Shown: positions 9,910 through 10,599, numbered from the stretch's first letter. The stretch: DNA of 19,196 nucleotides from a virus (IMGVR_UViG_2534682325_000029); one strand, 5' to 3'. Notes: a model not told the origin generated them from the sequence alone. A program made the numbers and translations.

Positions 9910-10035
9910 AGGCTATAAACCAACAACTAAACACTGAAAATTTAAATCAGAAATGATTTTTATTAAATCCTTAACCGGAGGGATTCCTGCACCCTCAGAA
10001 CATCAGGAGACCGCCCGAAAGGGCGGTAGTGAAAA

Positions 10036-10599
10036 ATGACTGAATTAACCAAAGAATGGCTACAGAACACGATTACCGGAATTGAGTCATCACGGGATGA
10101 AATACCGTTCGGACTCGATGAAGATCAAAACAACATGCTTACCGCATTAAAAATTGCACTGGCATCACTGGCATCAGTATCGGATGAACGGGCAGCCTAT
10201 GAATTATTTATGGAGAAGCGTTTCGGGGAATCTGTAGATCGCCGCAGAGCAAAAAATGGCGATAGAGAATACATGGCATGGGATATGGCGCTTGGCTGGA
10301 TTATCTGGTGTCACCGCGCCGCCATGCTTCAGGCTGGAAACTTTCGGGAAAATAAGGGTTCGTCAACCAATAATTTTCGGATAATCTCGGAAACGTCAAC
10401 CAACTCTCCGGCAATCCCTGATGAGGTGTTGTCCGCAATCCTGAAGGTCGCCAGGCTTCGTGCAGATTTCGATGCTTCTGAAGTGGACAGGCGAGGTATC
10501 GGTAGTTGTCTGGATGAGGCCGAGCAAGAACTTATCGTTACCATTAACGAATACGCCAGTCAGATCGCAGTAGAAGCGACACAGGGGGAGAACCAATGA
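10036..10599 (+). CDS. Hypothetical protein (187 aa), unknown function
   Basis: Long uninterrupted ORF in the same orientation as the early-right operon. Preceded by a perfect hairpin ACCGCCC-GAAA-GGGCGGT 8 nt upstream of the ATG. Confidence 0.5.
   Translation: MTELTKEWLQNTITGIESSRDEIPFGLDEDQNNMLTALKIALASLASVSDERAAYELFMEKRFGESVDRRRAKNGDREYMAWDMALGWIIWCHRAAMLQAGNFRENKGSSTNNFRIISETSTNSPAIPDEVLSAILKVARLRADFDASEVDRRGIGSCLDEAEQELIVTINEYASQIAVEATQGENQ

Follow-up and report, generated by a model that had tools for sequence, protein, structure and literature searches.

A portable GGAG and hairpin leader at a mosaic junction of Escherichia coli lambdoid prophages, with a possible role as a ribosome-binding site of the split type

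The viral DNA stretch IMGVR_UViG_2534682325_000029, whose whole length of 19,196 nucleotides (nt) is called the window below, is a Rac/Qin-type lambdoid prophage of Escherichia coli O157:H7. Positions 9,910-10,599 hold an intergenic gap and, behind it, a gene for a protein of 187 amino acids (aa). A perfect hairpin stands close to the start codon of that gene and had been noticed in an earlier reading made without database searches (the sequence-only reading). It belongs to a conserved module that precedes several unrelated genes and occurs in about half of complete E. coli genomes. The module and the gene behind it comprise the following features of the window:

9962..10034, + strand: core of the conserved module, 73 nt, the commonest BLAST match range in E. 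coli genomes
10005..10009, + strand: AGGAG, the proposed Shine-Dalgarno (SD) sequence, abutting the 5' arm of the hairpin and 26 nt ahead of the AUG
10010..10027, + strand: hairpin ACCGCCC-GAAA-GGGCGGT, a perfect 7-bp stem with a GAAA tetraloop
10028..10035, + strand: A-rich spacer AGTGAAAA, 8 nt from hairpin base to AUG; module homology stops 1-2 nt inside it
10036..10599, + strand: open reading frame (ORF) of 187 aa with its ATG at 10036; RefSeq WP_000137954.1, 'hypothetical protein'

The hairpin, its distance of 8 nt from the start and the 187-aa ORF are all as first described. The ATG at 10036 is the sole possible start, because an in-frame TGA lies at 10030-10032. The AGGAG at 10005-10009 had gone unmentioned. 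It forms a duplex of -7.4 kcal/mol with the 3' end of 16S rRNA and is predicted to be unpaired with a probability of 0.29 in the version found in the window. The spacer at 10028-10035 itself has no SD, and the SD-like 3' arm of the hairpin (-7.9 kcal/mol) is unpaired with a probability of at most 0.14. In isolation the hairpin has a folding energy of -14.1 kcal/mol, and in the region's centroid fold it dominates. The window contains 14 perfect stems with 7 bp or more, where Markov shuffles give 7.8 +/- 3.3; for GC-rich ones the figures are 4 and 0.9 +/- 1.1. By itself, then, the hairpin is statistically unremarkable; its significance comes from its conservation in other genomes. An Rfam search of 9850-10150 gave no match at the gathering score and nothing meaningful up to an E value of 10, and a literature search on the hairpin sequence and on Rac/lygF found no description of the element.

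Conservation was measured with a BLAST query of 201 nt around the hairpin, run against 5426 complete E. coli genomes. It returned 4512 matches in 2706 of them, with at most 7 per genome; O157:H7 genomes carry up to 7 module copies. Most matches span query positions 63-135, which correspond to window 9962-10034 and end just 5' of the ATG. The module is also present in phage records of the Rac-like, Shiga toxin (Stx)-converting and other coliphage kinds. One further record, PP818812.1, is named as an Actinobacillus pleuropneumoniae phage and carries the module at 94.5% identity, which is odd for a Pasteurellaceae host. From IMG/VR, copies were retrieved through three independent anchors (sequence lying ahead of the SD, the bare hairpin, and the module's 5' part), and 197 copies were extracted.

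These copies take two forms. In the common long form the order is the stop codon of the upstream gene within TGAATAATTAA, approximately 30 nt of A/T-rich sequence, AATCCTTAACCGGAGGGATTTCTGCACCCTCAGAACATCAGGAG, the hairpin, the spacer and the ATG; the whole leader is ~70-105 nt long. As read from the alignment, TGAATAATTAA has stops in all three frames. At one locus (L004, ~3270-3290) and at most of the loci classed as 'long-A', differing upstream genes all terminate within the shared string CTGAATAATTAA, with stops in three frames, so that unrelated proteins have a common C-terminal -TE* or -PE*. The compact form has only 33 nt, namely the stop TAA, TGTC, AGGAG, the hairpin, the spacer and the ATG, the remainder of the module being absent. 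It is found before four ORF families, and a phage may carry it ~1 kb away from a long copy. Since its AGGAG begins 4 nt past the stop codon of the preceding gene, the element there is inside an operon.

Among 65 distinct variants of the long module the mean column identity is 96%. GGAG is invariant in all 65, while 12 of the 14 stem columns vary. Changes common in the stem are wobble-preserving (C to U; at the first pair, A/G), and a G-C to A-U double change occurs once. A manual tally, whose sampling is non-independent, gave approximately 78 pair-preserving and 14 pair-breaking transition instances.

The GGAG, the hairpin and the start codon are closely linked. Of 137 exact-hairpin copies, 136 have GGAG immediately 5' of the stem, a count that takes in 120 loci retrieved by the hairpin alone, and conversely the hairpin is present in every one of the 122 copies retrieved with the upstream anchor. 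Homology between copies ceases 1-2 nt 3' of the stem, and behind it stand at least 4-6 unrelated ORF families: DUF7167 (60 aa), DUF4014 (72 aa, hydrophobic), an ORF of 43 aa, mosaic proteins beginning MTELTKE or MQEIKENI, and a Q-antiterminator-like protein. The distance from hairpin to ATG is 5, 6, 7 or 8 nt in the DUF7167, DUF4014, 43-aa, MTELTKE-type and MQEIKENI families, none of which has an SD of its own. The Q-like family alone has a 10-nt spacer, and that spacer contains a GGAG of its own. Across unrelated genes the hairpin keeps a fixed linkage both to a GGAG on its 5' side and, 5-8 nt past its 3' side, to a start codon, which makes it a very probable component of the translation initiation region. 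The suggestion in the sequence-only reading that the hairpin occludes or structures this region is supported as regards structuring; occlusion survives as a rival, weighed below. The Q-antiterminator-like protein directly behind the module at L060, L027 and related IMG/VR loci has 173 aa and matches PF06530 (E = 1e-31), with a helix-turn-helix like that of sigma-70 region 4.

The distance from GGAG to AUG is 26 nt in the window and 23-26 nt in other copies; with the hairpin removed it becomes 8 nt (5-8 nt). A DUF7167 homologue that has no hairpin (64% identical) reads GGGGGAG-TGAAAG-ATG, which is the GGAG and the spacer of the module at the same 6-nt spacing. MNTLTKEW homologues in the phages mEp460 and 1720a-02 have a conventional AAGGTGA/AAAGTGA site. 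When 1.8 Mb of related prophage DNA was scanned for any arrangement of SD, hairpin and ATG, essentially this hairpin family alone was returned, so these phages do not use the arrangement generally. For 22 representative variants, partition-function folding gave unpaired probabilities of 0.00-0.14 for the 3' arm and 0.3-0.99 for AGGAG.

The genes on either side of the module combine freely, with at least six upstream gene endings, at least 4-6 downstream families and many combinations of the two. Upstream genes of the LygF type are followed by seven downstream families, those of the 103-aa type found in the window by six, and those before the compact form by four. In a subset of copies sharing both flanking genes, nucleotide diversity is lowest within the module (0.02 from the SL1 stem-loop to the SD and 0.04-0.08 in the rest, against 0.03-0.24 in adjoining coding sequence). 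Selection, frequent homologous exchange within the module, or both, could have produced this low diversity. Short conserved boundary sequences are a long-standing proposal for lambdoid mosaicism (PMC3029335), and the module resembles them as a conserved intergenic patch with non-homologous, freely reassorting genes on both sides. Compared with the published boundary sequences its length (70-105 nt) and its spread (half of E. coli genomes) are unusually great, and it differs in holding a cluster of stop codons, an SD, a hairpin and a fixed spacing to the ATG. Our confidence that the module is a conserved portable leader and a mosaic junction is high.

Outside Escherichia and Shigella the module was nearly absent from the species representatives searched. 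A degenerate pattern of SD plus hairpin was searched in 185,579 species genomes, one genome per species, and found the module in Escherichia and Shigella only, except for one scaffold of a metagenome-assembled genome binned as Collinsella. That 3-kb scaffold (L214) carries the E. coli module and the start of a DUF7167 gene, and is probably mis-binned E. coli prophage DNA. The other 18 pattern matches were ordinary T-tailed terminators or chance matches. The identical 18-nt hairpin does occur after GGAG in Clostridia, Chloroflexota, Neisseria and others (L196-L217), mostly as T-tailed terminators; its occurrence in those unrelated bacteria is sequence convergence, not homology. As the module is confined to Escherichia/Shigella, deep comparative analysis is impossible. 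In the Qin prophage of K-12 MG1655, ydfX abuts ydfW, and the region was judged lacking from this annotation, the sequence not having been searched for the module; datasets from K-12 are therefore probably uninformative.

We propose that the element is a portable split ribosome-binding site as well as a mosaic junction, and give this composite statement a probability of roughly one half. The leader would join interchangeable accessory genes in the early operons of Rac/Qin/Stx-type lambdoid prophages of E. coli and Shigella, and its fixed core would consist of GGAG, the 7-bp GNRA hairpin, an A-rich spacer of 5-8 nt and the AUG. The stable hairpin would remain folded on the mRNA and loop out 18 nt; the distance between a single-stranded AGGAG and the AUG would thereby shrink from 26 nt (23-26 nt in other copies) to effectively 8 nt (5-8 nt), making the AGGAG usable by the 30S subunit. 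Both of the hairpin-less comparisons, the DUF7167 homologue and the MNTLTKEW homologues, favour this reading. Such a self-contained fold may hold the SD and the AUG in a constant local context, insulated from variable neighbours. At the level of DNA, the ~96%-identical module would act as a homology patch where co-resident prophages swap flanking genes. The anatomy, the conservation, the linkage of GGAG, hairpin and AUG, the reassortment of flanks and the lack of promoter, terminator and Rfam signals are observations; from them we infer that AGGAG is the SD in use, that the hairpin is folded during initiation and that recombination takes place inside the module.

The nearest known systems are the split initiation regions of phage T4 (Nivinskas et al. 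1999; Malys & Nivinskas 2009, as reviewed in PMC3014915). There an intervening structure brings the spacing of SD and AUG down to 5 nt in gene 38, where it would otherwise be 22 nt, and to 11 nt instead of 27 nt in gene 25; mutations that destabilise the structure lower initiation (PMC3014915). The prophage element would share this design: a proposed SD that is too distant (23-26 nt) and, between it and the start, a predicted stem-loop of ~17-18 nt that would restore the spacing (here to 5-8 nt). In the window the SD-like AGGAG is 26 nt from the start, beyond the ~15 nt at which an SD could be used directly, and the predicted intervening fold leaves 8 nt, within the range of 5-11 nt. The T4 cases are gene-specific and experimentally proven, whereas the prophage element is one sequence used across several unrelated genes and is known from sequence and folding prediction. 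It differs further in lying at a mosaic junction, in temperate lambdoid prophages, and in having a GC-rich GNRA hairpin that abuts the SD without a gap.

The rest of the intergenic gap and the gene before it contribute four more features to the discussion:

9598..9909, + strand: 103-aa ORF ahead of the gap, in PHROG 1372 (unknown function), C-terminus ...RNKAEA*
9910..9961, + strand: A/T-rich left spacer, confined to the 'long-B' version of the intergenic region
9953..10039, + strand: upstream ORF of 28 codons (uORF; MIFIKSLTGGIPAPSEHQETARKGGSEK*) that passes through the module and the hairpin, its TGA overlapping the ATG of the 187-aa gene (ATGA)
9978..9996, + strand: SL1, a predicted stem-loop GAGGG-AUUCCUGCA-CCCUC from the RNAalifold consensus

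The gap between the 103-aa ORF and the 187-aa ORF measures 126 nt, so the 125-bp gap first described does exist, but it is A/T-rich in its first half only (24% GC over 9910-9975 against 58% over 9976-10035). The 103-aa gene is one among many alternative left neighbours of the module. The left spacer is present only at loci with this same upstream gene and always travels with it. The uORF is not conserved: its start codon is ACG or GTG in relatives, and in the majority class of modules there is a TAA in frame, as read from the alignment. The module as a small ORF was rejected on this ground. In some relatives, in-frame fusions of the uORF to DUF7167 are annotated as proteins of 84-87 aa (P0129, P0123). 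The loop of SL1 contains UUCCUG (9984-9989), which is complementary to CAGGAG (10004-10009). Among the distinct variants 98% of SL1 cells are paired, with no covariation. SL1 was rejected as a repeated operator, having a single occurrence in the window, and any role suggested for it is speculative.

Several results weigh against the split-site proposal. In a covariation test of three candidate helices across the 65 distinct variants, every measure equalled its shuffled control; 97.5% of cells were paired, no more than in the shuffles, and with copies 96% identical, covariation was not significant. The stem has a single double compensatory change, and the covariation term of RNAalifold is just -0.18. 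The element is young and found in Escherichia/Shigella only, so part of its conservation may be due to recency and to homogenisation by recombination. Fifteen copies have weakened hairpins (-4.4 to -8.4 kcal/mol), and behind every one the ORF is intact; no association appeared between degraded hairpins and broken downstream ORFs, so this comparison gave no sign that the stem is essential, although an intact ORF carries no information on the level of expression. The melted 3' arm, AGGGCGGU, pairs with the anti-SD at -7.9 kcal/mol, close to the -7.4 kcal/mol of AGGAG and at the same spacing; geometry therefore cannot separate a split SD from a masked one. Finally, the AGGAG of the long form can itself pair with an upstream UCCU or UUCCUG, and its unpaired probability in the window is only 0.29.

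The masked alternative, which could also be a translational-coupling device, takes the purine-rich 3' arm as the true SD, sequestered by the hairpin, with translation occurring only when the stem melts; we consider it a serious rival, if a rather unlikely one. Ribosomes terminating just upstream (in the compact form), the window-specific 28-codon uORF, temperature or a factor might do the melting. The arm does pair with the 16S 3' end at the correct spacing; a ribosome terminating at the compact-form stop, 4 nt before AGGAG, would open the stem; the uORF of the window ends in an ATGA overlap; and variants with weak hairpins retain intact ORFs. In the commonest (long) form, however, the stop lies 60-125 nt away and no uORF is conserved, the majority class having TAA in frame, so that the gene would be permanently repressed by a stem of -14 kcal/mol. 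Moreover, it is the upstream GGAG that is invariant while the purines of the 3' arm vary, and the homologue without a hairpin has GGAG at the equivalent position. To a pure mosaic boundary, in which the module is kept only as a homology patch or a recently spread linker and the hairpin has no role in initiation, we assign a similarly low likelihood. The hairpin might then be a terminator relic or a 3'-end or processing protector of the upstream message, and the genes downstream would use A-rich, S1-dependent starts. The free reassortment of flanks, the restriction to Escherichia/Shigella, the lack of covariation, the tolerance of weakened stems, the use of an identical hairpin as an ordinary T-tailed terminator in unrelated bacteria and the established proposal of boundary sequences in lambdoid mosaicism (PMC3029335) all accord with it. 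Left unexplained would be why homology ends exactly at the base of the stem with an ATG 5-8 nt on in unrelated genes, why GGAG is the most invariant part, and why the 26-nt unit of SD plus hairpin recurs on its own.

Other functions are less probable still. The whole module (~70-100 nt) might be a dedicated cis-regulatory RNA and no mere passive leader, an integron-like 'expression socket' gating whichever accessory gene sits behind it, although we regard this as improbable. The anti-SD-like strings UCCU (9967-9970) and UUCCUG (9984-9989, in the loop of SL1) could pair with CAGGAG in a geometry compatible with an H-type pseudoknot beside the GNRA hairpin; such a pseudoknot could be a switch, a thermosensor or a factor-binding site and could gate translation co-ordinately. 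The functions offered in the sequence-only reading, a promoter of the gene's own in the A/T-rich gap together with a hairpin serving as a 5' stabiliser or as an RNase III site, are very unlikely, as is an atypical terminator. The A/T-rich stretch at 9910-9975 and the stability of the hairpin speak for them, but promoter prediction on the + strand of the gap found no sigma-70-like site, whether in the window version or in the module's commoner form, and in the compact form a promoter would not fit. A stabiliser would need the 5' end of a transcript just upstream, where no such promoter was found. RNase III substrates normally comprise about two helical turns of double-stranded RNA, far beyond a 7-bp stem. 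The sequence-only reading was right that the hairpin is no typical intrinsic terminator: a T-run 3' of it is absent on both strands (+ strand tail, AGTGAAAAAT; - strand tail, CTCCTGATGT), and scanning for terminators gave no call there. It shares its sequence with Rho-independent terminator hairpins of unrelated bacteria, but differs from them in lacking the T-tract and in being followed by an A-rich spacer and a start codon. A nut-like antitermination site, with the GNRA hairpin as boxB for an N-like protein and the upstream UCCUUAAC as boxA, is the least credible of all and is largely refuted. The boxB of lambda is GCCCU-GAAAA-AGGGC, which GCCC-GAAA-GGGC resembles, and UCCUUAAC resembles the core of rrn boxA. 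Like the boxB of lambda and P22, the hairpin has a short GC stem and a GNRA-type loop and lies in the early operon of a lambdoid phage. Against this, its loop has 4 nt (a tetraloop) rather than the 5 of a pentaloop, and the candidate boxA is ~37 nt away rather than adjacent at ~8. No N-like gene is annotated in the leftward operon, whose products are DUF1391, DicB and DUF1482 proteins. The element stands at gene starts deep within operons, can occur twice per operon, and is tied in position to start codons, not to promoter-proximal sites.

The 187-aa protein had been taken for an isolated one without recognisable motif. No match was found in Pfam (E up to 0.01), NCBIfam, PADLOC or a PDB profile search, but the protein is not isolated. 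It has 4326 homologues, most of them with an extra C-terminal DUF551, and the homology search that had been suggested places it in a large mosaic family of accessory proteins of enterobacterial prophages; it is neither an orphan nor a phage protein of the housekeeping kind. With matches to PHROGs 14306, 660 and 60, it is built of blocks: residues 1-47 and 48-98, both common to hundreds of DUF551-annotated proteins, a low-complexity linker, and residues 128-187 (PHROG 14306). In longer relatives the DUF551 domain (PF04448) follows the last block; it is absent from the protein in the window. The AlphaFold model is all-helical and of low confidence (predicted local distance difference test score, pLDDT, 53).

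Ea22-type proteins of the lambdoid phages' exo-xis region have a mosaic build (PMC10834534), and the 187-aa protein shares with these DUF551/'Ea22-type' proteins the block-mosaic build and the helical prediction. Its N-terminal 100-135 aa are up to 94-99% identical to proteins annotated as DUF551, EaA or Ea22. It differs from them in lacking DUF551, in having no detectable similarity to lambda Ea22 (no match to the PF13935 (Ead/Ea22) profile; BLASTP against lambda Ea22, E = 1.4), and in being encoded in the rightward, nin-like region rather than in exo-xis. At most it can be described as an accessory, modular, predicted helical and probably oligomeric protein of the early operon.

The segment 9598-10720 is 100% identical to an E. 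coli O157:H7 prophage adjoining tRNA-Ser and mtfA. The gene order of the prophage is integrase, exonuclease, DicB, a LexA-type repressor, a Cro/CI-type regulator, YdaT, replication genes, DUF1627, several small hypothetical genes, the 187-aa gene, sok/hokD, DUF968, RusA, Q, three tRNAs and lysis genes. This order places the 187-aa gene within the rightward early operon, in its nin-like section. Directly behind it, at 10596-10673 (+), is an unannotated ORF of 25 codons, MSRPDAFAGVAIAIAFLVYVICRWG*, which is hydrophobic and resembles a single transmembrane helix. An ATGA joins the two frames, the small ORF starting on the ATG that overlaps the larger gene's TGA, and this points to translational coupling. 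At 10709-10813 (+) follows an annotated, hydrophobic ORF of 34 aa (MSDDISLVMEGALAVIAVVGVYCLVVFLMERLGN) with a strong SD (AAGGGAGGGAATATG); it stands just before sok/hokD, which occupies 10888-11212 and is matched by Rfam sok (114.9 bits) and Pfam HOK_GEF.

Past Q, the regions 13978-14224, 14998-15170 and 18055-18171 hold the three tRNA genes and then a match to the small RNA family STnc100 (100.8 bits) 5' of a 616-aa ORF, and an IS1203 element of the IS3 family with an ALIL frameshift pseudoknot ahead of the lysis genes. In strain NADC 5570 (L001) two genes of this prophage, those for the integrase and for the exonuclease-domain protein, carry annotations as pseudogenes with frameshifts. The corresponding ORFs of the window, at 1-1023 (340 aa, reaching the window edge) and 1285-3756 (823 aa), read intact, so that the state of decay of this prophage, judged from these reading frames, differs among O157 strains.

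Both of the likely roles of the element, split ribosome-binding site and mosaic boundary sequence, are of known kinds. Gene callers sometimes extend ORFs across the module (giving 'DUF7167' proteins of 84-93 aa) or start them within it, and recognising the element would improve annotation. The module probably marks a precise and recurrent point of exchange between co-resident prophages, and so bears on the shuffling of accessory genes in enterohaemorrhagic E. coli. If the split-site proposal is true, temperate phages would possess a naturally portable, context-insulated translation start, which would form a second, independent family beside T4 genes 38 and 25, present in thousands of clinical E. 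coli genomes.

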